Positions 1 through 62,485 of a stretch of 64,000 nt of DNA are shown here, piece by piece. The stretch is taken from contig NW_024704743.1 of NCBI RefSeq assembly GCF_018977255.1, forward strand, positions 2,978,001-3,042,000, written 5' to 3'. Both the position numbers and the translations under genes were made by a program. Under the pieces are notes generated by a model. The model had not been told where the DNA came from and ran no database searches. It was given only the letters and a program-made list of their open reading frames with translations. Within the stretch, counting starts at the first letter, position 1. Every line of letters starts with the position of its first letter. The DNA is from Callorhinchus milii (lineage: Eukaryota).

Positions 1-206
1 GGCAGCCAATTGCGCACAGCAATGTCCCACAAACAGTCGTGGATGGAAAATGACCAATTTATTATTGTTTTTGGTTTTGGAGGATTATTATTAGGCTCTG
101 TGTGGAGTAAGGAAACTTGCCCAAGGTTTCGCCCTCTGCCTGGAATTGAACTCAGGTCTCTCGCATGCAAAGCGAGTGCTCTGACCACTGAGCTACAGGA
201 CTCCAC
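1..206 (-). mobile_element. Young tRNA-derived SINE, family A short variant (cut by window edge)
   Basis: Reverse complement of the ggagtcctgtagctcagtggt...gttcaattcc A/B-box head; nearly identical to the 26174 and 35143 copies. Confidence 0.85.
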
Positions 207-539
207 AATAACAATAATGTGGCTTTCATGTTTCCTTTCTCCACACGCCCCTGTTTACCTAGCAGTAAGTAGGAATCCGATGGTTAGTCGATTGGCAGAT
301 CACTTTTTGGGGGTAATAATCCCTCCAAAAAAAATAGAAATTGGTCACTCAATCCACGACTGTTTGTGGGACATTGTTGTCAATTTTACCCACAAAATAT
401 ACAGTCAATCCACTTTACGATATATTCTGTGAAGTGCACTGATACATCTCAACGTCATGATAAGGCGCTATATCAAATGCAAGGATTATTATTATTAATA
501 ATAGAAAAGTGTGGCTGCCCTTTTTCTGTGTAATCGGCT

Positions 540-1065
540 GCAAACGTTCCCTCCCCCGGCCTCCGCGCGCTGTTTGCTCGTCGCAGCCGCTGTCGATGGA
601 GCGGCGCCGCTCGTGCGCGGCGCGGGTGGAAGGTCGGCTGCGCCCGTTGGTGAGCGAACCACGATCGAAATACCCAGCTGCGTGACAGACACTACTGCGG
701 TCTGCTCGCCCGACACCGAGCTCCCGCGACAAATTTTCGTTCAGTGCTTCGCCATTCAAATGAACATTTTTAGTTTTCAGTTAAACGCGACTACGCGTTC
801 AGGAAATATACGGCTACAGTTTTAATCCAGGCTGTTTCCCGAAACGCGTCCCCTCAATAGCACCAATCAAGCCTCTGCAGTTTGCTGCAAAATTTGTCAA
901 AAGGCCCGCAATTATTGGCAACTATTTGGGCAAATATTTTCTATTGGCCCCAGCTCATGACTCGTGATGCGACGGACGGAAGCACAATGGTCCAGGCATC
1001 ACAATGGGAGCGGTGAGGCAACACATCAGTATAAAAAGGCTGCGCGACAACACCACCGGCAGTCA
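540..1065 (+). promoter_or_regulatory. Putative promoter of protamine-like copy 1 (CpG-rich block, CCAAT boxes, TATA)
   Basis: CpG-dense 540-850; CCAAT 863-867; ATTGG 914-918 and 943-947; TATA 1030-1037, 58 nt before the ATG. Confidence 0.6.
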
Positions 1066-1087
1066 GAGACGCGGCTGAATCTCAATC

Positions 1088-1219
1088 ATGGCAAGAGGTC
1101 GTTCCCACAGGAAGAGGTCCGGACGGGCAAAGAAGGGGAAAAAGCGAGTACGCCATCACCGCCATCACCGCCATCACCGCTCGCGACGAGGGGGGAGACA
1201 CAGGCAGCTACAGCCATAA
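1088..1219 (+). CDS. Small basic protamine-like protein, copy 1 (43 aa, MARGRSHRKRSGRAKKGKKRVRHHRHHRHHRSRRGGRHRQLQP)
   Basis: Kozak context atcATGG; TATAAAAA at 1030-1037; AATAAA at 1504-1509; 14 R, 8 H, 5 K, no acidic residues; too short for the ORF track. Confidence 0.8.
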   Translation: MARGRSHRKRSGRAKKGKKRVRHHRHHRHHRSRRGGRHRQLQP

Positions 1220-1503
1220 ACAACCAGAACATTGAGAACATGGAAAAACAAGACCTATTTCGCTATCCCGAGGGATCAAGAGTAGAGTCTTGACCACCAT
1301 GAACAAACCCTGCCCCCCGAGTCCTGTCTCGTCTTCTACCCTCACCGTCACATTGACCCCCCACCCCACCCCCCGCTCTCCTCCGTGGGACCTTCATCAC
1401 CGTCACACTGCACCCCCCACCCCCCACCCCCCACCCCTAGCTCCCTGCTACATGGGACCATTATCTCCACTCCTCCCCACACCTTGTTGATTTGTTGTCA
1501 GTG

Positions 1504-1509
1504 AATAAA
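1504..1509 (+). terminator. Polyadenylation signal, protamine-like copy 1
   Basis: AATAAA followed by a GT/T-rich element (tgtgtattttgagttt); conserved in copy 2. Confidence 0.65.
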
Positions 1510-1761
1510 AGCAAATGATGCTTCAAAAACATGTGTATTTTGAGTTTCTTATGGCTTAAGCACCAGATGAGATACTGTGGACCTGTTAATGGGATGTTAG
1601 TGGCTTTGATAATACAGTTTCTTAAGATGATACCGTACCTAGCCCTGTAAAAAAATAGTATTCCTTGCATTTGATACAGCGCCTTTCACATTAGATGGAT
1701 GTTAGGGTGGGGATTGGGGCTGGGGTTGGGCCGGCTGGGTTACTTAACTATGGTTACTTAC

Positions 1762-1839
1762 CTGCAGTCCAGGAAGCCCCACACCAGGAGGGCCAACGTC
1801 TCCCGGTAACCCAGGGTGACCAGATTCTCCTGGGTCTCC
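1762..1839 (-). CDS. COL22A1: COL22A1 Gly-X-Y exon (GDPGESGHPGLPGDVGPPGVGLPGLQ); last exon seen, gene continues past position 1
   Basis: 78 nt, tgcag/gtaagt; GVG imperfection. Confidence 0.93.
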
Positions 1840-3884
1840 CTGCAAAAACAAAATAAAATTAGAATAACTGCGACGTGGTAAGTCAAATAGCTAGAGATGT
1901 GGTTTGTGATGTAGTATGTGATACGGTTCCCTCACAAAATTAGAGATGTGATTAGTGATGTGGTTAGTTTAGAACAATAATAATCCTTGCATTTGACATG
2001 GCACCTTATCACATCTCCGAGATGTTTGAACATTTACAGAATATGAATTGACTGTATATTGTGTGGGCGAAACCCGGCAGCCAATTGCGCACAGCAGCGT
2101 CCCACAAACAGTCGTGGATTGAGTGACCAAATCAGTATTATTTTAAAATTAGTTTTTGAAGGGATTTTTACCCCCACAAAAGCAGTCCGCCAATCGACTA
2201 ACAACTGCGTTCCTACTTACTGCTCGGTAAACAGAGGTGTCTGATAGTAAGGAAACTTGTCCAACGTTTCACCCTCCCCAGGAATCAAACCCAGGTCCTC
2301 TCGCTTGCGAGGTGAGTGCTCCAACCACTACGTTGTGAGACGTTTAGAAGACGTGATAAGGCGCTATATCAAACGCAAGGATTATTATTATTATTCAGTG
2401 TAGTGACTTTGATTCATTGGGGGACTAAATAATAATAATCCTTGCGTTTGACAATGCACCTTATCACGTCGTTGAGACAACTCAGTGCTTCCCTGTAAAA
2501 TGGGTGGATTATACTTTTGTGTGATAAGGTGTGATAAAGTGCTATATCAATTGTAAAGATTATTATTGTACAGTATTATTATTTGCCACATAGCGTTTGC
2601 GTTAAGTACCTCCCGGATACTCACCCTCACAAAACTCGGTACCCCCCCCCCCATCACACCAGTCCTCGCCAGACTCCACTGGCTTACAATCACCGAACGG
2701 ATCGCTTTCAAGACCCTCTCACTCGTCTTCAAGTCCCTTAATCCGTATCCCTATCCATGCAATCTGCAAGTTGTTGTTGTTGTTCTTGTTGTGATGTTGT
2801 CAGTGATGCAGTTATTGATGTGGTTTGTCTTTGTGGTTAGTGATGTTGTGATAAAGTTAGTGATACAGTTAGTGATGTAGTGCTGCGTTTCTCCCACAAA
2901 ATACGCAGTCAATTCGCTTGACAGTGTATTCTGTGAAGCGCTTTGAGAGGTCTCAAAGACCTGATAAGGTGCCATATCAAAGGCAAGGATTATTATTATT
3001 TAGCGTAGTGACTGTGTAATTTGTCGGCGTATGCAACAATCACAATGAATTTCTGCACAGCAAAGATCCAGGAAATGAGGGTGCAATTTATTGGGAGGAT
3101 TGTTGGCCACTAAATAGTGTTGTCGGCTCTTTCAATAATAATAGTTGTGTTTGAGGGGCCACACCTTATCGTGTCAGCGACATGTCTCAAATCTCATCGC
3201 TTGATTTACTGTGAAGTGTAGTGACTGTGGCAAAACATGGCAGCCGACTTGCGCACACCAACGTCTCGCAGTCATAAAGTGACCAACTTTGGGGCATTTT
3301 AACGCCCACGTGAACAGACAGGACTTGGGCTCAACATCTCAACCAAAGCACTGCATACATAGCTCTGACAAACCTAACTGCCTTGGAAGAATCAACTTAA
3401 ATTGGGAGCTCAAAGAGCCCTAATGTGGGCCTTTAACCCCACCCGGCAAATCCTACCCACCTACGGGGTTGGCACACTTTATGACTATTGCTTTCAATCT
3501 GACGTCCCATAGCGGTTAGTGCGCTCGCCTCGCAAGTGAGAGGATCCGGGTTTGATTCCCGGGTGGGAGCGAAAATGTCGGCAAGTTTCCTTTCTACATA
3601 AGCCTCTGTTTGCCCAGCTGTTAGTAGGAACTAGCGGATCACTTTCCTGGGGTAATAATCCCTCAAAAAAAAGAAATGTGATCACTCGATCCACGACGGT
3701 TTGCGGGACACTGCTTCCGCGCAATTTGCTGCCGAGTTTTGCACACAAGTACATGGTCAATCCACTTGACGGCATATTCTAGCGAAGCGCTGAGTGATAA
3801 GGCGCTGTGTCAAATGCAAGGATTGTTACGATTATGATTATTGTTAATTTAATGATTTAGAATAGGAGGATCAGACGCATGTGG

Positions 3885-4065
3885 CTGACTGACCTTATAA
3901 GGCCACGAAACATGACCGCTCGGGCGATAGCTTTGCACAGTGATGAGCGCCTTATAAGGTCACAACTGACCAAATGGCCCAGGCATCACAATGGGAACAG
4001 GGATGGCTCGGCCTGGGGATCAGTATAAAAAGGTCAAAGATTTCCCTCAAACAGGAGTCAGAGAC
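3885..4065 (+). promoter_or_regulatory. Putative promoter of protamine-like copy 2 (two CCTTATAAGG palindromes, TATA)
   Basis: CCTTATAAGG at 3893-3902 and 3950-3959; TATA 4024-4031, 60 nt before the ATG. Confidence 0.6.
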
Positions 4066-4083
4066 CACGGCTGAATCTCAATC

Positions 4084-4215
4084 ATGGCAAGAGGTCGTTC
4101 CCACAGGAAGAGGTCTGGACGGGCAAAGAAGGGGAAAAAGCGAGTACGCCATCACCGCCATCACCGCCATCACCGCTCGCGACGAGGGGGGAGACACAGG
4201 CAGCTACAGCCATAA
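4084..4215 (+). CDS. Small basic protamine-like protein, copy 2 (identical 43-aa product)
   Basis: Same ORF with one synonymous change (TCC>TCT); TATAAAAA at 4024-4031; AATAAA at 4452-4457. Confidence 0.8.
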   Translation: MARGRSHRKRSGRAKKGKKRVRHHRHHRHHRSRRGGRHRQLQP

Positions 4216-4451
4216 ACAACCAGAACATTGAGAACATGGAAAAACAAGACCTATTTCGCTATCCCGAGGGATCAAGAGTAGAGTCTTGACCACCATGAAC
4301 AAACCCTGCTCCCCGAGTCCTGTCTCGTCTTCTACCCTCACCGTCACATTGACCCCCCATCCCAGCCCAGCCTCCTGCTACATGGGACCATCATCTCCAC
4401 TCCTCCTCCTCCTCCTCCTCCTCCTCATATCTTGTTGATTTGTTGTCAGTG

Positions 4452-4457
4452 AATAAA
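4452..4457 (+). terminator. Polyadenylation signal, protamine-like copy 2
   Basis: AATAAA in the same ttgttgtcagtgAATAAA context as copy 1. Confidence 0.65.
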
Positions 4458-5677
4458 AACCTCAGAAAATGATGCTTGAAAAAAAAAACGTTTCGAGTTA
4501 AAACATTTGGCTCAAGCACTATACGAGATAGTGTAGACTTGCTGATGGGATGTTAGTGAACGTCAGCAATAAAATAATGTGCTCAATCTCTTATGCCTTC
4601 ACGGGCCATAGAAAGTGAATGCAAATGCCATGCGGCCAATAATAATATAATCATAATCTTTACATCTGATAGAGCACCTTAACACCTCGTTGAGATGTTT
4701 GCGCTTCATTATAATATATTGTTAAAAGTGTATTTTGCGAGCAAACACAGCAGGCAATTACACTGTATCCCACAAACAGTTCTGGATTGAGCGACAGNTT
4801 TTTTGAGGGATTATTTATTACCCCTGGAAAGCGATCCGCCAATCGACTAACAACCGGTATGTGGTTAACAACTGCTAAGGTAAACAGGCCTGCGGAGTAA
4901 GAAAACTTGCCTAATAATTAAAATAGCCCTTGCATTTGATACGGCGCTTTTCACATCTTCCGAGATGTCTCAAAGCGCTTCACAGAATATACTGTAAAGT
5001 GACATTGAGAAACAACCTAACATTCTGGGATTCACAAGTACATACAGACAGGACAAATCAGCTGTTATAGACCAACACTGCGCTGTTGTGGGTCGATTGT
5101 TTAATCGCAATTTGTGGTTATAATAATCCTTACACTTGATATGGAGCCTTTCGCGACAGGACATCCCGAGGCGTTTCATAAGATTTACTGTAAAGTGCAG
5201 TGACTGTGCATTTTGTGAGCAAAATGCGGCTTCAGCTCGCGCACGGCAACGTCCAGCAAACAACCGTGGCGCGAGGGACGAATTTTATCTGGGGGATAGT
5301 TGGCTAGGACACCGGGAGAGAGAAATTCCCCTCTCTCGCTACGGGATCTTTAACGTCCACCTGAACAGGGCAAGATGGGGTCTTGGTTTCACGTCTCATC
5401 CAAAGGACAATGCAGCACCAGTATCTGATTATGTGCGTACGTGTGTGTGTGTGTGTGTGCGTGCGTGCGCGCGTGTGCGCGCGTACGTGTGCGTGTGTGT
5501 CCCCGTCGTCATATTTTTTTTTAAACCGAAAAAAATGAAATACAAAGCTCGTTGGAATAAGCCCTTCGACATCTGGGTTGAAAACGTGGCCCAAAAAGGC
5601 AGGAAGTGTACATGGCGGGCTCTACCCTGAGCTCACACCTCCACAGGCGATGACTTACCCAACGCTCATTGGCTCAC

Positions 5678-5722
5678 CTTGTGTCCTTGGGGTCCTGCCA
5701 AGCCAGGCGCTCCAGGATGCCC
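5678..5722 (-). CDS. COL22A1: COL22A1 Gly-X-Y exon (GHPGAPGLAGPQGHK)
   Basis: 45 nt, cag/gtgagc. Confidence 0.92.
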
Positions 5723-7295
5723 CTGCAAACGCCAAACAGGATCAAAGTAAACACCTGGTCCAGAGACGTGGCAGGTTCGTTAACAGGACGATAGTCTGGT
5801 CGTTAAGGTAGCTGCACGCTTTATAGGTCACGTCTTGTATCGTAGCCGTTGACTGCGACAGAGTATTACGGGCAAAGAGACGCGGAGCAAGTTCGGAGCG
5901 AGTCGACAAGAGTTGCGGGAGAACGTGTGAGTCGGCCCAATCGACGAGCCCAGATGTGTCAGGTTACTCATGTCGCAAGATCTCCCTCACAAACCCCGGC
6001 CATCGTGCGGTAACGGTTACTCCGTCACGCAAACAAACAGACATCGATTGAATAATCACCCTCCACGGCTGACAACAGGGCGTTATCACAAATAATAATC
6101 CCTGCGTCTGATGCAGACCCTTCGCACATCGTCAGTACGTCTCGCAGCACTTCACAGGATATACTATAAAGTGTAGTGACTGAGTGCAGCGACTATGTGT
6201 TTTCTAGGCGAAGGTGGCAGCCAATTTTGCGCATAAAAACTACCCACAAATATCCTTGAAGTCAATGAGCGACTTTTATGTGGTGGATTGTCAGCTAATA
6301 CACTGGGAGAGAGAAACTCCCTTCTCTTTTCGAACAGCGCTGCCGCCAGCGCAACTCTTTAACGTCCGCCTGGACAGGCACGGATGAGGCCTCGGTTTAA
6401 CGTCTCAACCAAAGGATGGCACCTCTTACAATGCATTGCTCTCCCCAGCATTGCACTGGAGTGTCGTCCTAGACGAGACGGGTTCCAAGTCCGACACGGG
6501 GCTTGAGCTTACAACCCTGCGACTCAGAGGCCAAATTTATGACTGAGCCAGGCTGCTAAAACATCGAAGCATCTTAAAGCTCCTGTCCTGGGGGGGATTT
6601 GCTGTCTGGTGTAGTGACTATGTGGTTGTCGGCAAATGGATGGACAATCCATTGGTCGGGGTCCAAATTAAAAGGCAGATCAAAAACAATAATAAACACA
6701 AACGACTGGATAATCACCTTTCTTATAACAATAAGGGCGTTATAACAAATAATAATCCTCGCATCTGATGAGACGCCTTATCACATCACGATAAGGCGCT
6801 GCATCAAACACGGGAATTATTATTTATAATCCTATCTTGCTCTATAAGTAAGGATTATTATGTATAATCCTAGCCTGCTCGAGCCATTAACTCTTCCCTC
6901 ATGTATTTGATGTCTCCATCAAATTTTTTTTTTAAAAAAATCATCATTATTCATCATCGTCGCCGACAATATGGAGCTCTCTTCCTCCATCCCTCCATCT
7001 TGCCCCCTCCTGCAATTTCAGGACAGACATCAGGAAGGTTTTCTTTACCCCGAGGGTAATTAACAACTGGAACAGGGTTACCAGGAAGGGTGGTTGAGGC
7101 CAGGACATTGGGACTCGGCTAAAAAACACCTGGATGCTGTGGTAGGAGGATGGTAGGGTGGGTTGTTCTGGAGGGATGAGATCAGATAGGCTGAAGGATC
7201 TCCAAATATTGGGATCCACTGGGGACTAAAACAGATTTTAAACTCCTCCGCGCCCTCCCCTCCCGGCCCCCCCACCACCAGACATACAAACTTAC

Positions 7296-10341: not shown

Positions 10342-12137
10342 CTGAAAAGCAAAGGGTTAAAGCCGCTAGAAAAATGACCCACTGAATGTGATGGGACCAC
10401 AGGTGCGTTAGCTGATGTTAATTGGTGGCTTTTGCTGATTCGCAGCTCTCAAGAGTTCGTTTGCCTCCGTCGGTATTTCTCTGTCCTGCAGGTTGTGGGT
10501 TCAGTAAAAATAAATAATCTTTGCATTTGATATACCACCTCATCGTGTCGTTGAGAGGTCTCAAAGCGCTTCACGGGATACACCGTAAAGTGCAGTGACT
10601 GCGCGTTTGGTGGGCGAAACGTGACGCCCAATTGGTGTCCCACAAACAGAGATGGTGAGTGACCGATTTGGATGGGGGTTGGGGGCTGGGGCGGTGGTAG
10701 GGGCGGGGGTTGGAGAGGGGAAGCGTGGGAAACGGGGAAGGAAAATTACAGGGGGAATAAAATGAAGGGAAATACTTCCAGCTTGCGAAATTGCCTCTTT
10801 AACAGGAGAGTCGGTGGCGTGACTCGCGCGCGGCCAGTGATTTATTTTAATGGCATTCCCTGCGTCTGTTCAGCCTGCAAAGCCCCTGCTCCGTTCCCCA
10901 GTCTAATATCTAACGGTGTGAAATCCCTGGCCCTGTCCTGGAGGTAAATGTGTTCCTCATATTAGAATGAATAAAGTTTCCCGCAGAGGCCAAGGGGAGA
11001 AACTGTGGCTTTGAGGTTTAATAGCCGAGAGAGATTATTACAGTTAATCCATGCTTGTCTGCACGGAGAGCTCAGCGGGTACCGATCGGCTCCCCATGTG
11101 CAAGGCTAGACACTATTAACGTAACGCTTCCTGTTCCCACCATCACTGGGCTGTGAATTCGCTGCCTCTCATCGGCTCTCACCCCCCACCCCCAACCCCC
11201 CCCCCACCCCCGCACGCATCATCCGTCCTTCAGATGAGACGTTAAACCGAGGCCCCGTCTGTGTTCAGGTGGATGTGAAAGATCTCGCGGTGCAATCGGA
11301 AGAGAGAGGGGAGTTTTCTTTCTCTGTGCCCTACCTGAGACGATAAAATTGGTCGCTCACTCTGTGGCTGTTTGTGGGACGCTGCCGTGTGCGATTGGCT
11401 GCCACGCTTCACCCACAAAAAATACACGGTCAATCCAGTTTACAGCATATCCCGTGAAGCACTTTTGAGCCATCTGAATGACGTGATAAGGCGCTATATC
11501 AAAGATTATTATTATTATAATGTTTCAGGCTCTGGCTTCAAGTCAAGACATCTCAAAGCGCTTCATAGGATTTTCTATAAAGCAATAGAGACTGTGTATT
11601 TTGTAGGCAAACTTGACAGGCAATTTCCGCACAGCAACGTCCCGCAAACAGCCAAGAAGTGATTGAATGATTTTAACTGGGGGGTTGTTGACCAGGACAC
11701 CGGGGCAGAGAGAAACTCTCTTCCCTTTTCTGATAGCGCCGCGGGATCTTTGACTTCCACCTGAACAGGCACATCCTCAGCTTAAAATTCGCACGCAGGA
11801 CGGCACCTTTGAGAATGAGCGCTCCCCCCAGTACTGCACTGGAGCATCAGCCTGGAATGTGAGCTCAAAGTACCCAACGTGGGGCTTGAACCCACAATTT
11901 TTTGACTCAGAGACGAGAGCGCTACCAACTGAGCCAGGCTCCAAAAGCAAACTGTGCATTTTTTGCTGGTTGGACTCCAGCAGGTACTCCAACCCATACT
12001 CTGGGTTCCCCAAGCCTTGGCTCTCGCCAACCTGCACCTATTACTCTCTGGAATTAGGTAAGCAGCGTGTGTGTCCCTGGGGAGAGAGAGCTCTCAATTA
12101 GAATGGATTTTAAGCTCAGTAACGGGGTTCCATGTAC

Positions 12138-12605
12138 GTCAGACACCCGGCTGATCACCGTGATGGGTTTCCCAGCGTGTCAGACACCCGGCTGATCACC
12201 GTGATGGGTTTCCCAGTGTGTCAGACACCCGGCTGATCACAGTGATGGGTTTCCCAGTGTGTCAGACACTCAGCTGATCACCGTGATGGGTTTCCCAGTG
12301 TGTCAGACACCCGGCTGATCACAGTGATGGGTTTCCCAGTGTGTCAGACACCCGGCTGATCACCGTGATGGGTTTCCCAGTGTGTCAGACACCCGGCTGA
12401 TCACCGTGATGGGTTTTCCAGTGTGTCAGACACCCGGCTGATCACTGTGATGGGTTTCCCAGTGTGTCAGACACCCGGCTGATCACAGTGATGGGTTTCC
12501 CAGTGTGTCAGACACGCGGCTGATCACCGTGATGGGTTTCCCAGTGTGTCAGACACCCGGCTGATCACCGTGAAGGGTTTCCCAGTGTGTCAGATACTTG
12601 GCTGA
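12138..12605. repeat. 41-bp minisatellite, about 11 units
   Basis: Unit gtcagacacccggctgatcaccgtgatgggtttcccagtgt at 12138, 12179, ... Confidence 0.97.
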
Positions 12606-13199
12606 AAGGTTATTTCGCAGTAGTGCAGTGTCACCCAGTGGCAAACTATTGTCCCTGCAATTCACAACAACGTTATCCTTTTCTGGTGAGGAGTGGTCAA
12701 ATAACCTAATCCAATGTGAAAGGCGCTATATAACTGCAGACTGTGTTATACAGTAAATTATAAATCGTATAATCTTTTAAGTCGTACATTCACACAAAGT
12801 CTCATTCGGTTTCCCATCAAAACCACTTAGGCTTCTTTGCACGAGTCTTTCAATCACCTCCTGACTTGTGACTCCGCTCCCCTATCCTCCATTACTCCCA
12901 CACTTACCGGCTGCCTTGAGTAGCATTTGCCGGTTAGTGCGCATGTGGTGGCGGGTCAAGACACATTGAATCGTAGGAAACATAGTCTTGACCCATCACA
13001 GCATGAGCCCTAACCAGCTGCATTATTGTAAATTATTGATTAAATCGGATTATATACGACTTATACAGTTTTTGCCTGTAACTCAGACTTCGGGTAAGAT
13101 ATATTATATGTTAAAGGACTGATATGACTGGCGTGAGTTTTACTGTATTTACTGCCGGACTCTGCTCCCCTGTGATGTCCACAACAGCCTCATACTCAC

Positions 13200-13292: not shown

Positions 13293-13552
13293 GTGTGCGT
13301 CAGCCAGGCTCGGTGTGTGTATCAGCTCGGCTCGGTGTGCGTCAACCAGGCTCGGTGTGCGTCAGCCAGGCTCGGTGTGCGTCAGCCAGGCTCGGTGTGT
13401 GTATCAGCTCGGCTCGGTGTGCGTCAGCCAGGCTCGGTGTGTGCATGTGTCAACCCGGTTCAGTGTGCGTGTGTCAGCCCGGCTCAGCGTGTGTGTCAGC
13501 CCGGGTCAGCGTGTGTGTCAGCCCGGCTCAGCGTGTGTGTCAGCCCGGCTCA
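13293..13552. repeat. 20-22 bp minisatellite (gtcagccaggctcggtgtgc type)
   Basis: Tandem units visible directly. Confidence 0.95.
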
Positions 13553-15784: not shown

Positions 15785-16257
15785 CTGTGAAGACAGCACA
15801 TGGGCACAGGTCACTGGACACGAACCGCAAGGCACCACGTCAGGCCAGGGCACCAGTAACGTTGCCCCCTGCCTGGGTTTTAACTGGACTGACTGTGTGC
15901 TTTGACTTGCCTTGCCGGTTGCTGGCTTTTAAGTCTTTTAAGTTAAATGGCACGTATTATTTGCGGGACATTGCCGCGTGCAAACCGGCGGCCGAACGTT
16001 AGTCAGTTAGCGATACCCTCCGACTCGCTTCAGTATGATGAGGTGGGGATTACGATTATTATAAACACTATTTATCCCTTCATTAAACACAACTTCAGAC
16101 ACACCGAGGCAACCAGTCAAGAGGAGACGGGTTTAGAGTTGTAAAGGGGCAATTTTAGGACAGACACCAAGAAATGTTTCTTCACTTAAAACAGCAGCTT
16201 AATGCTGTTGTGGGGGGAACGGTGTGACACTGTGACCAGCGGTCGCTGTGTGCCTAC

Positions 16258-16302
16258 CTTCTGACCCACGGACCCCGCGACCCCTGATCTCCCCGGCTCT
16301 CC
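16258..16302 (-). CDS. COL22A1: COL22A1 Gly-X-Y exon (GEPGRSGVAGSVGQK)
   Basis: 45 nt, cag/gtaggc. Confidence 0.92.
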
Positions 16303-16332
16303 CTGTGAAAACAAGCAGAAAATAATTAATTA

Positions 16333-16732
16333 AGCCCGGCTCGGTGTGTGTATGTCAGCTCGGGTCCGTGTGTGTATGTCAGCCCGGGCCAGTGTGAGTA
16401 TGTCAGCCCGGCTCGGTGTGTGTATGTCAGCCCGGCTCGGTGTGTGTATGTCAGCCCGGCTCGGTGTGTGTATGTCAGCCCGGGTCCGTGTGTGTATGTC
16501 AGCCCGGGTCCGTGTGTGTATGTCAGCCCGGGTCCGTGTGTGTATGTCAGCCCGGCTCGGTGTGTGTATGTCAGCCCGGCTCGGTGTGTGTATATCAGCC
16601 CGGCTCGGTGTGTGTATGTCAGCCCGGCTCGGTGTGAGTATGTCAGCCCAGCTCGGTGTGTGTATGTCAGCCCGGCTCGGTGTGTGTATGTCAGCCCAGC
16701 TCGGTGTGTGTATGTCAGCCCGGCTCAGTGTG
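16333..16732. repeat. 24-bp minisatellite (gtcagcccggctcggtgtgtgtat)
   Basis: About 16 tandem units. Confidence 0.97.
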
Positions 16733-17258
16733 CGAACACTCTGGAACACTCTTCCCCCAATCCCTGCGCCTTGCTCCCTCTCCCCTCTTTCAACTCCCAC
16801 GTGAAAATTTTCCTCTTTGACCGTGCTTACGGCCACCAAGGGAGAGGGCGAGGTGGAGATGGAGGGATGGAGTTCCAGAGGGTGGGGACAGAAAGGCCGA
16901 AGGTCTGACCATTGATGATGAAACAGGCAGGGAGGGGGATGTGGAGCAGTCCAGTGACGGCCGAGTGGATGGAATGGGCAAGTTGGTGAAGTTTTAATAG
17001 GTTGTAGAGATAGGGAGGAGCAAGACTATCGAGGGCCTTGAAGGTGAGGGCAAGGATCTTGAACTGTATCCTCTGAGTGATGGGGAGCCAGCGGAGCTGG
17101 GCGAGGACGGGGTGGGTAATCGGCTCACAAGGAGAGGACATTATAGCGTTACCCTACGTGAAGGTTCCTGTACGAATGTAAGTCATTGTGGTTTTGTTAT
17201 AACAATGCCTCACAATATTCCAGTCCATTAATGAGGTGACCTGCAGTTTTCCTCCTAC

Positions 17259-21484: not shown

Positions 21485-22294
21485 CTAGAGAACGTGAGAC
21501 ACAGATGGAGGGCGTTAAAAATTGACAGCAATAATATGACAGAAAATCATTCTCCAGAAAAAAAAAACAGCGAGAGACGCCAGGAGCATTTGGATTACAC
21601 AGAACGTTATCAGGGTCCAGGCGCTGAAGTCACGGTTGCTTTACAAAAGAGGTTTAGAACAACATCAACAAAAACAACAATTTGCACTCAAACACCGTTC
21701 ACGTGCAGAAGTCTCAAAGCACTTTACAGGCAGCGTGGAGTCCGGTAGCTCGGTGGTTAGAGCGCTCGCCTTGCAAGCGAGAGACCTGGGTTCAATTCCC
21801 GGCAGGGCGAAACCTTGGGCAATTTTCCTTACTCCGCACACCTGATAATAATCCCTCAAGACCTACCTCTTTGACCTATGGCCGCCTCCCCCTCTCCCTT
21901 CCTCGGCCACTGTTCAGCGCTCCCAGAAGCTACCTTGAGCGATATAAATGCAAGTTGTTGTGGTTGTGTACATGGCGTGGAAATAAATATTTGATGCAGA
22001 AATTACTTGATTATTTTGCCCACCTGAATCTATTTGGTTAAGAGTTAAGGAGCAAAAGGGGAGGTGTTACGCTGCTGGGTATATACTATAGGCCACCAAA
22101 TAGTAGGAACGAGCAAATCTACAAGTAAATTTCAGAAAGATGTAAAAACAATGGAGTAGTGGTAATGGGGGACTTCAATTATCCAGTGATAGACTGGGGG
22201 GAGGAAACAGTGTAAGGGGTAAGAAGGGGGAAGAATTCCTGAAATGTGCACAGGAGAATCAAGTAGATTACAGAAAGTGGAATTGGATATGTGA

Positions 22295-22512
22295 AAACCC
22301 ATCACCGAGATCAGCCGAGTGACTGACACACACAGAAACCCATCACCGAGATCAGCCGAGTGACTGACACACACAGAAACCCATCACTGAGATCAGCCGA
22401 GTGACTGACACACACAGAATCCCATCACCGAGATCAGCCGAGTGACTGACACACACAGAAACCCATCACCGAGATCAGCCGAGTGACTGACACACACAGA
22501 AACCCATCACAG
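22295..22512. repeat. 41-bp minisatellite, about 5 units, opposite orientation to the 12138 array
   Basis: Unit aaacccatcaccgagatcagccgagtgactgacacacacag at 22295, 22336, ... Confidence 0.95.
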
Positions 22513-22648
22513 TGCTCAAGGGTCTCCAAACTCGACTGAGGGTTCACATATGTATGTCACCCTACACGTGGAAACTCCCTTGACTGTGATGGAAAGCATA
22601 CGCTTCTCTCTCTCTCTCTCTCTGGTTAATAATGAAATCATTACTTAC

Positions 22649-30188: not shown

Positions 30189-31673
30189 CTGAGAGAGAGA
30201 GAGAGAGAGAGAGGATGAGAAGACCACTCATGACTGTCCACAATACATGCCCTCCAGGCTGCATTGGTCAGGGTTAGGGTACCACATTTGCTACATAAAA
30301 CATAGTCACTACCTTTGCAGTAAATCCCTGTCTGAGAGGTTACGGGCAATGCAACAATTGTTATGATTATCCCAACCAACTAAGATATCACTTTTGCATA
30401 AATATAATTGTGTGTGTGTATGGGTGCGTGCCTGCCCTCATGAATCACTGAAGTCAATAAGACAGAAATAATAATCCTTACATTTGACGCGGCATCTTAT
30501 CGTGTCATTGAGATGTCTCAAAGCGCTCCACAGTATTTACTGTAAAGCAGGGTAGCTGTGTGTTTTGCGAGTGAACGCGGCAGCCAATTTGGGCACAGAG
30601 ACGTCCCACAAACAGCCATGAAGCGAGTGGTCAATTTTATTTGGGGAATTGTCGGCCAGGACGCTAATAGCGCCACGGGATCTTTCACGTCCACCTGAAC
30701 ATGCACCTGAACGAGGGATTTAAGGTCTCATCCAAAGGACCTCTGACGATGTGGCGCTCCCACAGCACTGCACTGCTGTGAGTATCAGCCTTGGACTGTG
30801 AGCTCAAAGTCCCATTGTGGAGCTCGAACCCACAACTGTGGTATTTGGAGGCGAGAGTGCTGCTGACTCGGATGACACACAGTGAAAGCATTCAGTCACC
30901 CACACAGACATCCTGAGAGAAAAAGGCTCCTTACACACAACAGCCGAGGAAACTATTCTGAGGTTAAAGTGAGGCGGAGAGGCCAGATGGGCAACGACTG
31001 AGAATGTTGCCTTACTGTTTGGAAAAACAGGACTCAATCTCTTTATGATTTTGTTTTTGAATTCAGTGGAGTCCTGCGGTGTCGTGGTTAGAGCACTTGC
31101 CTCCCAAGCGAGAGGACCTGTGTTCGATTCTCCTACTCCACGTGCCTCTGTTTACCGAGCAGTAAGCAGGAACCCACTTGTTAGTCGACTGGCAAATCAC
31201 TTTCCGGGGTACTGTTTGTGGGACACGGCTGTGCACAAATGGCTGCCGTGTTTTGCCCGTAAAATATAGTCAATTCATTTCACAGTATATTCTATGAAGC
31301 ACTTTGCGAGGTCTCAACGGTGTGATAAAGCGCTATATCAAATGCAAGGATTATTATGATTAACCCTCTGGCAAAAAAAGGGGGTGCATTCTCCCCAAAA
31401 AGGAACACACACACACACACTCTCCAGAAGAGAGGGTGCTCTCCCCAAAAGAGTCCCTCCTTCTAGTGAATCTGTGTCTACAACTTTCATAGCGGACAAA
31501 TGGAAACCAAACATATTGAATGGAACACATTAATCATAATAATTATTATAATATTCTCCACATTTGATAGAGTGCCTTTCCTGTCAGAAGTACATCTCAA
31601 AACACTTCACAGGGTCTTACTGTAATAAGTGTGCGTTTTGTGGGTGAACACAGCAATTGACACAGAGCAGTAT

Positions 31674-31985
31674 CTGACACACACTGAGCCGGGCTGACAC
31701 ACGCTGAGACGGGCTGACACTCCCTGAGCCGGGCTGACACACTCTGAGCCGGGCTGACACACGCTGAGCCGGGCTGACACACGCTGAGCCGGGCTGACAC
31801 TCCCTGAGCCGGGCTGACCCACACTGAGCCGGGCTGACCCATACTGAGCCGGGCTGACCCACACTGAGCCGGGCTGACCCATACTGAGCCGGGCTGACAC
31901 ACGCTGAGCCGGGCTGACCCACACTGAGCCGGGCTGACACACGCTGACCCGGGCTGACACACGCTGAGCCGGGCTGACACACGCT
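31674..31985. repeat. 20-bp minisatellite (ctgagccgggctgacacacg)
   Basis: About 15 units, reverse orientation of the same family. Confidence 0.97.
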
Positions 31986-32011
31986 ATTAAACAATTTATG
32001 AAACCTCTTAC

Positions 32012-32056
32012 CTTCTTGCCACTTGAGCCCTTCAGACCTCGCTCGCCCTGCATGCC
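32012..32056 (-). CDS. COL22A1: COL22A1 Gly-X-Y exon (GMQGERGLKGSSGKK)
   Basis: 45 nt, cag/gtaaga. Confidence 0.93.
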
Positions 32057-57702: not shown

Positions 57703-58269
57703 TCTGGCATAGCCGCCGGCGTAGGACGCCCCTCACCCGGTCGATGGCGTTGTAGTCGGAGACATGGAAGACGTGGGCGGCCTTGGGCTCAGAGGCGATC
57801 TCCTGCAGCTCCTCTCGCAGCGCCTCGCCCACTCCCACTGCGAAGACCCGCAGGCCAGCCGAGTGTGCCAACGTGGCGTTGGACAGCACCTCATCCTGGC
57901 TACGGCCATCCGTCAGCAGCACCACCACCTGCTGGACCCCCGACTGGCCAGGCCGCCCACCCGCCTGGACTGTGAAGCTATCCAGAGCCACGTGGCCGAT
58001 GGCCTCCCCTGTCCTGGTGTTGCCCCGCCGGTACGGGATGGCGTTGGCTGCTCTCTGGACGGCCTCAGCGCTGTGGTGAGCCCCCAGCTCAAACTCGGTG
58101 TGGGGCCGGTCACTGTAGCTCACCACCCCAACGTGAGTGCCGTCCACCCCCACCTCGAAGGTTTCTACCAGCTTCACCACCCATTGCCGGACCTTCTGGA
58201 AGTTCTCTCGCCCCACGCTAGACGAGCTGTCCAACAGGAAGACCAGGTCATAGTGCACGTTCTTACAGC
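57703..58269 (-). CDS. COL22A1: COL22A1 exon, von Willebrand factor A domain
   Basis: 567 nt, cag/gtaagt; GCKNVHYDLVFLLDSSSSVG (MIDAS DxSxS) ... LLTDGRSQD ... EIASEPKAAHVFHVSDYNAIDRVRGVLRRRLCQ closely matches the collagen XXII vWA domain. Confidence 0.97.
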
Positions 58270-59430: not shown

Positions 59431-61397
59431 TTCCCCCCCAAAGGAGGATAGTCACCAGTTGCAGTTCTACAAACTTAGCATAAAATATTCTTTCAACCTG
59501 CCCAGCCAGCCAGACAGTCATGCAGATTAGATTATATGCCACGGCCATGTTTATTTTTAGCTGCTTTCTGTTAAGTGTTTTTTTTCCCCATGAAAAATGC
59601 ATCCTTTAATCAGCGGTTGAAATGCCAACTCCACTCGCAACACAGCATACATTTACACAGCGCCTTTCACTTCAGGAGGATATCCCAAAGGGCATTCACA
59701 GTTCCGGCCGGGGTACTCGAGCAGGGAGGGTGTGGTGGGGAAAGGCGACAGAAAGCGCGGTCAAAGAGGAAGGTCTTGAGATGGACCTTGAACGAGCGGA
59801 GGGAGCGCGTGTGTCGGAACGACTTGGGGAAGGATTTCGAGAGCGAGGGTGCAAAACAGCTGAAAGCTTGCCTGCTGATGATGGCGGGGGCGGGGGCGTG
59901 GGGGGGGGGTGGCAGGGAGGGGCAGGGGACATGAGTGAAGGGAACGGAACGGGCGAGTCAGTGGGTTGTGAGGAGGTTACAAAGGTAAGACGAGGGCGAG
60001 ACTGTGGACTCATTTGAAGGTGAGCACCAGGATCTTGAATCTCGATTCTCTGGGAGATGGGTGGGGTCTAGTGGAGCCGGGCGAGGATGGGTGGCGATTG
60101 GCTCGCAGAGCCTAGACCTAAACAATCTCTTGTCCCTTCTTAATGTTAACCCTGCAAGTCAAAGCCCTAATGGGCAGGGTGGTCCTTGCTGGACAAGCGA
60201 TGGGAAAGCTTGCCAGCCACACTCTCAGTGGCAAGCCATACGGTTTTAGTTGGTTAGACTATAGCAGTTACCCCAATCTACACTCTGGGCTGCCCCAAAG
60301 CCTTGGCTCTCGCCAACCTGCCCCTAATACTCTCCAGAATTAGGTAAGCCGGACGCGTCCCTCCAACAAGAGAGTGTACAGTCCAACAATCTATCTCTGG
60401 GATTTCCACGTGTAGTTGGGATGCTCGGAATTCTCAGTTGGGTTTGGAGACTCTAAAGCGACGGAGATGGGTTTCCACGTAAGTCAGACGCCCGGCGAAC
60501 ACCCCCCAAAAAAAGAATTAATGCGTCGACTGCTAAAAGATAGAGTCTTGGTGTGGTCCACACGACTTGCTGGTTGAGGCGTCAGTCAGGTAAGGCTCTA
60601 CTTATGCCTCAGCTGCAGCAGCTTCCGCAAATAGCTGAGCAGAGCCGGAGCACAGCCAGTCACCAGTAGAGGGTAAATATAGTCACCTGCCACCGCAATT
60701 CCACCCATTCTTAGCCTGTGAGACCTGCTTTTGCTTTCAAGTTTAACATAATGATTACATCTGACACCAGTGAGTGCCTGTCACATCAGCAGGACATCTC
60801 CGAGGGCTTCACTTGATTTACTGCAAAGCGCAGTGACTGTGGGAACGGGGCAGCCAATTTGCCATACAATCATGGAGTGAGCGACTAACTCTATCTGGGG
60901 AATTGTTGAGAGAATTGCGGAGGGAGAAACTCACTTCCCTTTTTCAATAGTGCCGCCGAATCTGTAACGACCGCCTGAACTTGGTTCAACGTCTCACCCG
61001 AACTTGGTTTAACGTCTCTCCTGAACGACAGCACCTCTTGACAACGCAGCGCTCCCCGCAGCACTGCGCAGGAGCAGCATCTTAGACTGTGTGATTCCAA
61101 GTCCCGAAGTGGGGCTTGAACCCGCAACTTTCCGACTCGGAGATGCGAGCGCTACCACTGAGCCAGGCTGACATCAGTGTTGGTGAAGGCTCATGGCTCA
61201 GAAATAAAACTGAAGATTGAAGCCATTTCTGACTTAAAAATGACATTGTTTGAGTTTATTCCAACATGGGAATGTACAATCCCGCCATTGGGAATGTTCA
61301 AAGGGTTTTCCATCGAAACAGATTGCAGGGTGGCTGTGGAATCTGTGACGCTATAGTTCACATCCCCGCCCGCATTGTGTTCCTCACATTGTGTGTC

Positions 61398-62485
61398 AAG
61401 CCGGCTCAGTGTATATCAGCCCGGCTCAGTGTATATCAGCCCGGCTCTGTGTGTATCAGCCCGGCTCTGTGTATATCAGCCCGGCTCTGTGTGTATCAGC
61501 CCGGCTCTGTGTGTATCAGCCCGGCTCTGTGTATATCAGCCCGGCTCTGTGTGTATCAGCCCGGCTCTGTGTGTATCAGCCCGGCTCTGTGTGTATCAGC
61601 CCGGCTCTGTGTGTATCAGCCCGGCTCAGTGTATATCAGCCCGGCTCTGTGTGTATCAGCCCGGCTCTGTGTATATCAGCCCGGCTCTGTGTCTATCAGC
61701 CCGGCTCAGTGTGTATCAGCCCGGCTCAGTGTGTATCAGCCCGGCTCTGTGTGTATCAGCCCGGCTCTGTGTGTATCAGCCCGGCTCTGTGTCTATCAGC
61801 CCGGCTCTGTGTCTATCAGCCCGGCTCAGTGTATATCAGCCCGGCTCTGTGTCTATCAGCCCGGCTCAGTGTATATCAGCCCGGCTCTGTGTGTATCAGC
61901 CCGGCTCTGTGTGTATCAGCCAGGCTGTGTGTGTATCAGCCCGGCTCTGTGAGTGTCAGCCCGGCTCTGTGTGTATCAGCCAGGCTGTGTGTGTATCAGC
62001 CCGGCTCTGTGTCTATCAGCCCGGCTCTGTGTGTATCAGCCCGGCTCTGTGTGTATCAGCCAGGCTGTGTGTGTGTCAGCCCGGCTCAGCGCGGGTCAGC
62101 CCGGCTCAGTGCGTGTCAGCCCGGCTCAGTGCGTGTCAGCCCGGCTCAGTGCGTGTCAGCCCGGCTCAGTGTGTGTGAGCCCGGCTCAGTGTGTGTGAGC
62201 CCGGCTCAGTGTGTGTGAGCCCGGCTCAGTGTGCGTCAGCTCGGCTCAGTGTGCGTCAGCTCAGATTAGTGTGCGTCAGATCAGATTAGTGTGCGTCAGC
62301 TCAGATTAATGTGCGTCAGCCCGGTTTAGTGTGTGTCAGCTCGGCTTAGTGTGAGTCAGCTCAGATTAGTGTGCGTCAGCTCAGATTAGTGTGTGTCAGC
62401 TCGGCTTGGTGTGTGTCAGCTAGACTTAGTGTGTGTCAGCTCGGCTTAGTGTGCATCAGCTCGGCTTAGTGTGCGTCAGCCCGGT
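61398..62485. repeat. 20-bp minisatellite (ccggctctgtgtgtatcagc), about 54 units with a variant gradient
   Basis: Exact 20-nt periodicity visible in the sequence columns. Confidence 0.98.

Follow-up and report, generated by a model that had tools for sequence, protein, structure and literature searches.

The 64,000-nt stretch of Callorhinchus milii DNA analysed here (the window) contains two real small genes for a very positively charged protein, whose reading frame and basic make-up are maintained by selection. They belong to a small multigene family of this chimaera that is presumably active in the testis and probably encodes sperm nuclear basic proteins of the protamine type. An earlier note on this DNA had described a sperm nuclear basic protein locus of two copies hidden in a collagen gene; the selected, protamine-sized basic gene stands, while the copy number and the tie to collagen do not.

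Two complete genes in adjacent collagen introns

Re-reading the window sequence bears out two complete, intronless units on the plus strand, each with a TATA box, a 132-nt ORF and an AATAAA signal. In copy 1, the TATA box TATAAAAA (1030..1037), which is invariant in all eight intact copies of the family, is followed by an ATG at 1088 (+58), an ORF at 1088-1219 and AATAAA at 1504. In copy 2, TATAAAAA at 4024 (4024..4031) is followed by an ATG at 4084 (+60), an ORF at 4084-4215 and AATAAA at 4452. These spacings agree with the roughly 60 nt between TATA box and ATG proposed before, as do the distances from stop codon to AATAAA (284 nt in copy 1, 236 nt in copy 2) with the proposed 3′ UTRs of about 240–290 nt. 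Both ORFs do encode the same 43-aa protein, in which 27 of 43 residues are Arg, Lys or His and Asp, Glu and Cys are lacking; it is marked by three His-His-Arg repeats, and the ORFs differ by a single, synonymous base. The combination of TATAAA, an ATG 35–90 nt further on and an ORF of 35 aa or more in which Arg, Lys and His make up 50% or more occurs twice in the window and not at all in 100 local shuffles of it.

Upstream of its TATA box, copy 1 carries an A-type region (737..1029, plus strand) shared with the A copy of a tandem pair at 1.17 Mb (G000:C2), which blastn matches at 67% over 737-873 and at 72% over 889-1030. Two putative regulatory CACAATGG motifs of the SOX type (ACAAT) lie there at 983 and 1000 (983..1007). 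The B-type promoter of copy 2 has two CArG-type boxes, CCTTATAAGG, at 3893 and 3950 (3893..3959) and one CACAATGG motif (3987..3994). The predicted 3′ UTR of copy 1 (1220..1509, with predicted transcript ends) comprises a possible 6-bp hairpin (1276-1293), a C-rich middle, a conserved box (1484-1503) and AATAAA (1504-1509); that of copy 2 (4216..4457) has the conserved box at 4432-4451 and AATAAA at 4452-4457.

The units lie, as the earlier note had it, antisense in adjacent introns of COL22A1, surrounded by minus-strand Gly-X-Y exons with AG/GT borders. A 78-nt exon of this kind with in-frame Gly-X-Y (1762..1839) separates the two copies, the next upstream exon found (5678..5722, minus strand) forms the edge of the intron containing copy 2, and Gly-X-Y exons extend further on both sides. 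A minus-strand VWA-domain exon (57734..58246; Pfam VWA, E 2.8e-50) identifies the host: its domain has its top identity, 70%, with white shark collagen XXII and is 62–66% identical to tetrapod proteins named collagen XXII. The host gene also has a weak laminin-G exon (Pfam), and FAM135 exons follow downstream on the same strand.

A dispersed family on one chromosome

Instead of a two-copy locus, we find a dispersed family of eight intact copies and one 3′-only remnant. The earlier note had named hundreds of transposon or LTR copies as a reason to abandon its reading; nine copies were found in the 991.5 Mb searched, these counts being lower bounds. The copies occupy six sites, all on one chromosome; these sites are spread across 110 Mb, and their flanks are unrelated. 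Besides the COL22A1 pair, the sites include the tandem pair at 1.17 Mb, a pair near FAM135B with a 6-nt insertion in the coding region, and sites at 2.49 Mb and 82.79 Mb. The family is not peculiar to a collagen gene, as six of the eight intact copies lie outside COL22A1, and because just two sit within it the nesting looks incidental. The spacer of the 1.17 Mb pair holds no remnant of the collagen exon that separates the window copies.

Every copy spans about 0.65 kb and is self-contained, with promoter motifs, a TATA box, an intronless ORF and a 3′ box with AATAAA that is conserved among family copies. The sequence common to the copies begins before the TATA box and runs on past AATAAA, which shows that they spread as DNA segments. 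At least one CACAATGG motif lies 30–50 nt upstream of the TATA box in all eight intact copies. In mouse testis, ACAAT ranks first among the motifs at SOX30 sites, and it is shared by all SOX proteins (PMC8136829).

The promoter tree places the two B copies together across loci (bootstrap 99), whereas the CDS tree groups the copies by locus, and the promoter and CDS alignments each reject the other's tree (AU p 0.0026 and 4.9e-7). This conflict points to gene conversion; the coding regions of neighbouring copies have been homogenised while each kept its own promoter.

Three other places were examined as further copies and rejected as chance: C2:110,273,913 (a 17-aa ORF, no 3′ homology), C9:3,278,892 (a 3′ box with two mismatches, no ORF or other homology) and C12:16,731,110. 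Loosening the promoter pattern yielded 37 matches, nine of which fall at seven known copies, the other 28 being judged from match text alone. Rfam on positions 1-6000 places no family over the units; outside them it reports only heads of tRNA-like SINEs and some weak matches.

Selection on the reading frame

The earlier proposal of a real small, intronless gene with a protamine-sized basic product holds up, since frame and composition outlast neutral expectation. In neutral simulations along the CDS tree, none of 3000 runs in any of six settings kept the coding features, defined for all copies as a start codon, an open frame, no Asp, Glu, Cys or Trp, and at least 24 basic residues. Counting dN/dS is 0.10–0.61 in all ten pairs, and in 64 of 74 replacements of a basic residue the new residue was basic too, summed over pairs that are not independent. 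Pairwise gaps are a multiple of three in 11 of 11 cases in the ORF vs 12 of 52 in the UTRs, counts that are likewise not independent and in which the 9-nt repeat alone favours in-frame slippage. Likelihood tests for omega below 1 are weak: three codon models on 39 codons give 2 × delta lnL of 0.5, 3.5 and 4.7, the parameter fixed at 1.0 being assumed to be omega.

Composition and comparison with known sperm proteins

The eight intact copies encode proteins of 43–51 aa and 5.2–6.1 kDa with a computed pI of 13.1–13.6. Calculated masses after loss of the Met lie near 5197, 5340, 5176, 5300 and 6136 Da. All eight contain 30–36% Arg, 10–17% Lys and 12–19% His (52–67% together) and lack Asp, Glu and Cys. 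Their longest pure Arg run is 2–4 residues (2 in the window protein), and their mixed basic runs are 10–13 residues long. The net charge is about +20, and a 43-aa polycation of this kind is expected to be unfolded. The absence of a signal peptide is upheld: seven of the eight have no hydrophobic stretch, their most hydrophobic 9-residue window being still strongly hydrophilic, and the eighth has one in its C-terminal tail only.

Protamine expression is confined to haploid male germ cells, and the P-type proteins contain at least 30% Arg, take the place of histones and occur in the nuclei of mature sperm. Two sources describe protamines as Arg-rich proteins of 3–10 kDa (PMC11607694) with 30–106 aa and a pI of 12 or more, of which Arg clusters are a named feature and which Arg content alone does not define (PMC12216123). 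All eight proteins lie within the P-type size range and are Arg-rich with a pI of 12 or more. With P-type protamines the family shares a mass of 5–6 kDa, a pI above 12, at least 30% Arg and the absence of acidic residues (PMC11607694, PMC12216123, PMC1479337). It differs from usual protamines in its short Arg runs, its His, which is arranged in His-His-Arg, its Lys content and its lack of a Pfam match. Protamine P1 has a Met-Ala-Arg start and Arg-Ser sites, both of which occur here. More broadly, fish and tetrapod protamine genes are multi-copy, intronless and TATA-driven and start with Met-Ala-Arg, a pattern that the present genes fit.

The ratfish Hydrolagus colliei has proteins R1–R3, known from protein sequencing rather than from genes. 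The closest by description, as opposed to sequence, is R3, a Cys-free, Arg/Lys-rich holocephalan protamine of about 48 residues with an Ala-Arg start, which differs in having little His against the 12–19% found here. Transitions of basic proteins in the ratfish have been the subject of a cytochemical study. The dogfish scylliorhinines Z1, Z2, Z3 and S4 are chondrichthyan sperm proteins of similar size. Three of them, Z1, Z2 and S4, have many Cys residues and form disulfide links, and such Cys-linked (keratinous) protamines are unlike the Cys-free family described here; Z3 is Cys-free and Arg/Gly-rich but has long Arg runs, against 2–4 residues here. Mammalian protamine 2 and transition protein 2 are zinc-binding spermatid proteins that are likewise His-rich, but they use Cys, have an intron, are single-copy and show no sequence match; PRM2 is also cut from a precursor. 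Salmonid protamines are not known to be related to chondrichthyan ones and consist mostly of Arg clusters; their genes share with the present family an intronless, TATA-driven, multi-copy layout and a conserved 3′ end. Salmon protamines measure 30–32 aa (PMC12216123), vs 43–51 aa here.

Database searches and sequencing runs

An exact look-up of four protein variants among about 15 billion proteins found none of them, which suggests that annotation has missed the family. Word-indexed searches returned none of 581 candidates at E 10 for a five-sequence alignment and no candidate for the 51-aa variant, and HMMER returned none among 1.84 billion representatives at E 0.001; for short, low-complexity proteins such blanks, including the Pfam result below, carry little weight either way. 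The ESM Atlas gave only unnamed viral clusters at scores of 0.76–0.79, below chance level, and no usable named match. Pfam, including the protamine models (Protamine_P1 and P2), assigned no family at E 0.05 to any of five distinct proteins, and the PF00260 profile found nothing on the genome, its controls being silent too. The literature searched, which included few subscription journals, gave no description of chimaera protamine genes. Among elephant shark full-length cDNAs (PMC3466250), 1,699 from testis were classed as non-coding; as BLASTX similarity decided coding status in that work, a protamine mRNA lacking database homologues would fall into this class.

Of 12 sequencing runs from one organism, none on record as RNA or labelled by tissue, five contain part of this sequence, and four (X1, X2, X6 and X9) were compared over 800-1960. 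Run X1, RNA by guess only, gave one contig (970-1267, depth 5.2) made mostly of promoter and leader letters of the FAM135B-side pair. This contig begins 60 nt upstream of the TATA box and mixes these letters without that pair's 6-nt coding insertion, so it is unlike a mature mRNA and may be DNA or a collapsed assembly. Over this stretch, runs X9 and X6 cover repeats only, plus a short piece in X6. Run X2, whose kind is not on record and which may be the source sample, has coverage in 30 of 30 bins; one of its contigs spans 1072-1531 and differs by one 3′ UTR base. These runs are counted neither for nor against expression.

Possible function and alternatives

As protamines, the proteins would be made in spermatids by transcription from the TATA/SOX-motif promoter, with the mRNA stored under the control of the conserved 3′ UTR. 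The unfolded 5-kDa polycation would then displace histones and neutralise DNA phosphates, and Arg-Ser sites near its N-terminus may be phosphorylated during loading. The weakest step concerns stabilisation: lacking Cys, the protein could be cross-linked only through its His-His-Arg repeats and a metal such as zinc. The collagen introns would be a tolerated address with no role in this mechanism.

A neighbouring possibility is that the proteins act earlier, as transition or intermediate spermiogenesis proteins that bind DNA in elongating spermatids, aid histone removal and are later replaced, being absent from mature sperm. Their short Arg runs and Arg/Lys/His/Gly mix would suggest weaker binding than that of canonical protamines, and whatever favours spermatid expression serves this explanation equally. 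Parallels are found in mammalian TNP1 (small and Arg/Lys/Ser-rich) and TNP2 (which binds zinc via His and Cys), and in the dogfish intermediate proteins S1 and S2. We nevertheless regard it as unlikely, as 30–36% Arg, 5–6 kDa and a pI of about 13 match the final P type, and eight copies would suggest the very high output of a final packing protein. The promoters raise the question of somatic cationic peptides (intracellular nucleic-acid-binding, metal-binding or antimicrobial) made in skin, muscle or gland under SRF control. CArG boxes characterise muscle and immediate-early genes driven by SRF rather than protamine genes, and at least one perfect CCTTATAAGG box is present in six of eight promoters, with two in each B copy, which speaks against protamines. 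Histatins and similar His-rich cationic peptides have antimicrobial activity, and multi-copy dispersal is also common among defence peptides. However, both A copies have no CArG box and still keep the SOX-type motif and TATA box, and in composition the proteins are polycations of the kind that neutralises DNA. Seven of the eight proteins have no signal peptide, pro-region or amphipathic or hydrophobic segment and therefore no ordinary secretion route, and a somatic role appears quite improbable to us.

It is very improbable that the units are a low-copy mobile-element remnant (a solo LTR or non-autonomous element) or a non-coding unit whose basic ORF is incidental. Such an origin would accommodate a TATA box and poly(A) signal within 0.5 kb, dispersal over 110 Mb and an A-run about 20 nt past AATAAA in all nine copies. 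Against it, just nine copies were found (a lower bound), all on a single chromosome, their alignment shows ragged ends and no termini in common (target-site duplications were checked by eye only), the four copies examined have no common terminal inverted repeat, and the ORF and its composition are kept far past neutral expectation. Among the neighbouring ORFs scanned (278 of 306 at the FAM135B pair, 150 of 213 at 1.17 and 2.49 Mb, 22 of 32 at 82.79 Mb and 0 of 143 at the remnant), none with a transposon domain adjoins a copy; the nearest is a fragment of a LINE endonuclease, about 3.5 kb away from the 1.17 Mb pair.

Returning to protamines, a more far-reaching version is conceivable, though we consider it doubtful. 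Here, holocephalan protamines would have evolved independently, with no descent from those of teleosts, sharks or tetrapods, and histidine-zinc bridges would take the place of disulfides. The self-contained 0.65-kb cassette would have spread through the chromosome, and conversion would hold the proteins identical while the A and B promoters remain distinct, two waves of expression being one conceivable purpose.

Significance

The number of protamine origins in vertebrates is an old open question, for which cartilaginous fishes are the key outgroup. The family is a clean case of coding-region conversion between copies that retain different promoters. If confirmed, it would belong among protamine-type systems rather than form a new type of system. 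It would also provide the genes of a holocephalan sperm protein in cloned-ready form, along with their promoters and 3′ UTRs, make synteny searches feasible in other chimaeras and sharks, and supply a natural Cys-free, His-rich protamine with which to probe metal-based chromatin stabilisation.

Two intronless units within COL22A1

The window holds the two plus-strand units that the earlier note had described, each with a TATA box, an intronless 132-nt ORF and a poly(A) signal. Inspection of the sequence places TATAAAAA at 1030, the ORF at 1088–1219 and AATAAA at 1504 for copy 1 (+), and TATAAAAA at 4024, the ORF at 4084–4215 and AATAAA at 4452 for copy 2 (+). The arrangement of TATAAA, ATG and basic ORF occurs twice in the window versus never in 100 local shuffles. 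Near-identity between the copies spans from just 5′ of the ATG to ~130 nt inside the 3′ UTR, with a single synonymous difference between the ORFs; promoters, leaders and distal UTRs are divergent. A lone assembly N (4798) lies ~340 nt past the second poly(A) signal. Members of a tRNA-derived SINE family, numerous and oriented either way, are spread through the window (e.g. 106–198, 2246–2394 and 3505–3569). It also contains mutually related 20-bp minisatellite arrays, one of them inverted (13293–13484, 31614–32045 and 61250–62340), and further 41-bp and 24-bp arrays (11996–12687, 16237–16812 and 22254–22559).

The antisense location inside COL22A1 introns, likewise proposed from the window alone, stands. 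Gly-X-Y exons with AG/GT borders run on the minus strand throughout the window and past its limits, and one of them (1762–1839, −, AG/GT borders) separates the two copies, which therefore lie in adjacent introns. The upstream part of the host gene includes an exon for a VWA domain (E 2.8e-50) and a weakly matching laminin-G exon. For the VWA domain, identity is 70% with white shark collagen XXII and 62–66% with tetrapod proteins bearing the collagen XXII name, versus 27–46% with matrilins, VWA2 and collagens VI and XII. Downstream of the collagen, and on its strand, are FAM135 exons, the arrangement of human COL22A1 and FAM135B. Together, the VWA identities and this neighbor provide good sequence support for COL22A1 as the host. 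A second FACIT-like collagen, with a laminin-G exon followed by Gly-X-Y exons, occupies ~2,940,500–2,954,400 (+) of the same chromosome (G000:C2, hereafter C2; stretches L023 and L024), tail-to-tail with COL22A1 and head-to-head with FAM135B. The order mirrors that of human COL19A1–COL9A1–FAM135A, and by that analogy the second collagen may be a COL9A1-like paralog retained there.

A gene family on one chromosome

DNA queries with three different copies and a search with the 3′ box pattern, across the 991.5 Mb genome, returned one identical set of loci, with counts that are lower bounds: eight intact copies and one remnant. The duplicated locus noted in COL22A1 is thus present as a pair (W), but belongs to a larger family, with only two of the eight intact copies in COL22A1 introns. 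DNA searches placed the others in an inverted, head-to-head pair 5′ of the FAM135B start codon (F; C2:2,924,426 and 2,928,232), a tandem pair (T; C2:1,174,571 and 1,173,122) and two singles (M, C2:82,794,301; D, C2:2,491,071); the remnant (C2 ~110,295,600) keeps the 3′ UTR and flank alone. Every intact copy has TATAAAAA, an ATG 51–60 nt further on, an ORF of 43–51 aa and a conserved 3′ box including AATAAA. The five protein types are 57–98% identical to the window protein.

Several loci show local peculiarities. The C-terminal tail of the 51-aa D variant (L008; C2:2,490,861–2,491,013, −) corresponds to 3′ UTR sequence of other copies, and its usual stop appears to have been lost through a deletion. 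Within the F-pair spacer, a FAM135B coding exon recurs as an inverted copy that lacks ~10 codons in frame (C2 ~2,926,300–2,926,500, +; L021), a sign of local DNA rearrangement. The 0.98-kb inverted duplication bearing the F pair adjoins another of ~1.0 kb, 94% identical (C2:2,929,317–2,930,342 and 2,931,908–2,932,914; L022). The T pair is flanked by a single-ORF rhodopsin-family GPCR on one side and a HIG1-domain exon on the other, with a LINE endonuclease fragment nearby (features at L027:1699–2946, −; L027:8760–9176, −; L029:3815–4201, +).

Gene conversion and selection

In both the W and the T pair, a B copy lies downstream of an A copy. Between pairs, leaders are 84% (A versus A) and 88% (B versus B) identical, compared with 71–75% within a pair, whereas coding sequences are 99% identical within a pair versus 78% between pairs. 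The promoter tree unites the B copies (bootstrap 99), the CDS tree groups copies by locus, and in AU tests each alignment rejects the other's tree (p 0.0026 and 4.9e-7). Conversion has occurred within pairs; on the simplest account of these sequences, an old A–B tandem pair would have been duplicated, after which coding regions were converted within each pair. A counterpart of the W-pair collagen exon was sought in the T-pair spacer and is absent there. Contigs from two sequencing runs aligned to the window (X1, possibly RNA, and X2) carry F-type promoter and leader letters at 970–1267, and none of those tabulated has the F-type 6-nt coding insertion; this mosaic could represent conversion polymorphism among individuals, or collapsed assembly bubbles.

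Among the five distinct CDS types, counting dN/dS is 0.10–0.61 in all 10 pairs. Of 74 pairwise cases in which a basic residue was replaced, 64 put another basic one in its place. Pairwise gaps are divisible by three in 11/11 cases in the ORF versus 12/52 in the UTRs; these counts are interdependent, and the 9-nt ORF repeat by nature favors in-frame slippage. Likelihood tests of omega below 1, over 39 codons, give weak results (2 × ΔlnL 0.5 with GY+F3X4, 3.5 with GY+F1X4 and 4.7 with MGK+F3X4). A stronger test simulated neutral, indel-free evolution on the CDS tree, whose branches sum to 0.77 substitutions per site, with three extant sequences as root, each with and without CpG hypermutability. 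All copies retained the start codon and open frame in 0–0.5% of runs, and the full set of observed features in 0/3000 in each of the six settings. This is no ascertainment effect, because the copies were found via DNA similarity rather than via their ORF. The family is a real, multi-copy coding unit under selection, the target of which, judging from the substitutions, is frame and charge more than exact residues. Protamine evolution likewise retains frame and charge over exact residues.

Relation to protamines and alternative readings

The encoded proteins measure 5.2–6.1 kDa, with a computed pI of 13.1–13.6 and a charge of about +20. They consist of 30–36% Arg, 10–17% Lys, 12–19% His and 10–16% Gly, with Ser or Thr behind basic residues at positions 6–7 and 11. 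They have no Asp, Glu, Cys or signal peptide, as first noted for the window protein. In published descriptions, protamines are Arg-rich and measure 3–10 kDa, and protamine-like proteins are rich in both Arg and Lys and measure 6–40 kDa (PMC11607694; PMC1479337). Arg clusters, a pI ≥12 and a length of 30–106 aa are listed as protamine features in a source that warns against calling a protein a protamine on Arg content alone and that finds such genes seldom annotated in insect genomes (PMC12216123). The chimaera family falls within range for size, pI and Arg content, but its Arg runs are short (2–4), with mixed basic runs of up to 10–13. Protein searches established no homologs, which fits an unannotated, fast-evolving, low-complexity microprotein; assignment to the protamines therefore depends on composition and gene anatomy rather than on homology.

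All eight copies have a CACAATGG motif 30–50 nt 5′ of the TATA box. In mouse testis, SOX30 sites have ACAAT as their top motif, but all SOX proteins share it (PMC8136829), so the motif is a lead only. Six of the eight copies have a perfect CArG box, CCTTATAAGG, which is present twice in each B copy and missing from the A copies, and some copies have CRE- or AP-1-like half sites; a somatic, CArG-driven cationic peptide is an improbable reading. A 27-nt 3′ UTR box ending in AATAAA matches a degenerate pattern with ≤1 mismatch in 9/9 copies; the sole further genome match has two mismatches and was judged to be chance. A 5–6 bp hairpin is predicted at one 3′ UTR position in five of six types examined. 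Protamine mRNAs are stored for days ahead of translation (PMC8812575), and by analogy such storage would give conserved 3′ UTR elements a role.

Homology between copies reaches ~75–290 nt 5′ of the TATA box and ≤~200 nt beyond AATAAA, with ragged limits that fall in simple repeats and SINEs. The promoter and the downstream flank moved along with the ORF, so today's copies spread as DNA. An A-run close to the expected cleavage site in 9/9 copies is, speculatively, a trace of older retroposition. The hundreds of dispersed copies expected of a transposon or LTR are not what the genome-wide searches returned, and a mobile-element remnant is very unlikely. A nuclear DNA-binding polycation of spermatids, of protamine or transition type together, is quite probable; the final protamine type is moderately favored, and a transition-type spermatid protein is unlikely, if slightly less so than the somatic peptide. 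We regard these genes as most likely encoding His-rich, Cys-free sperm nuclear basic proteins. Tentatively, their transcription might be SOX-driven, their mRNA storage mediated by the 3′ UTR, their Arg-Ser sites phosphorylated and zinc bridged via His-His-Arg.

Agnathan and chondrichthyan sperm proteins were reportedly treated by Saperas et al. in 1997. Full-text literature searches found no description of chimaera or elephant shark protamine genes; the supplements of PMC3466250 and of papers on the elephant shark genome may be relevant to whether the genes are undescribed. The microgene family is real and apparently unannotated. Protamines are expected in a chimaera, and the class itself is unsurprising; what is new here are the genes, their His-His-Arg composition and the promoter-versus-CDS mosaic.
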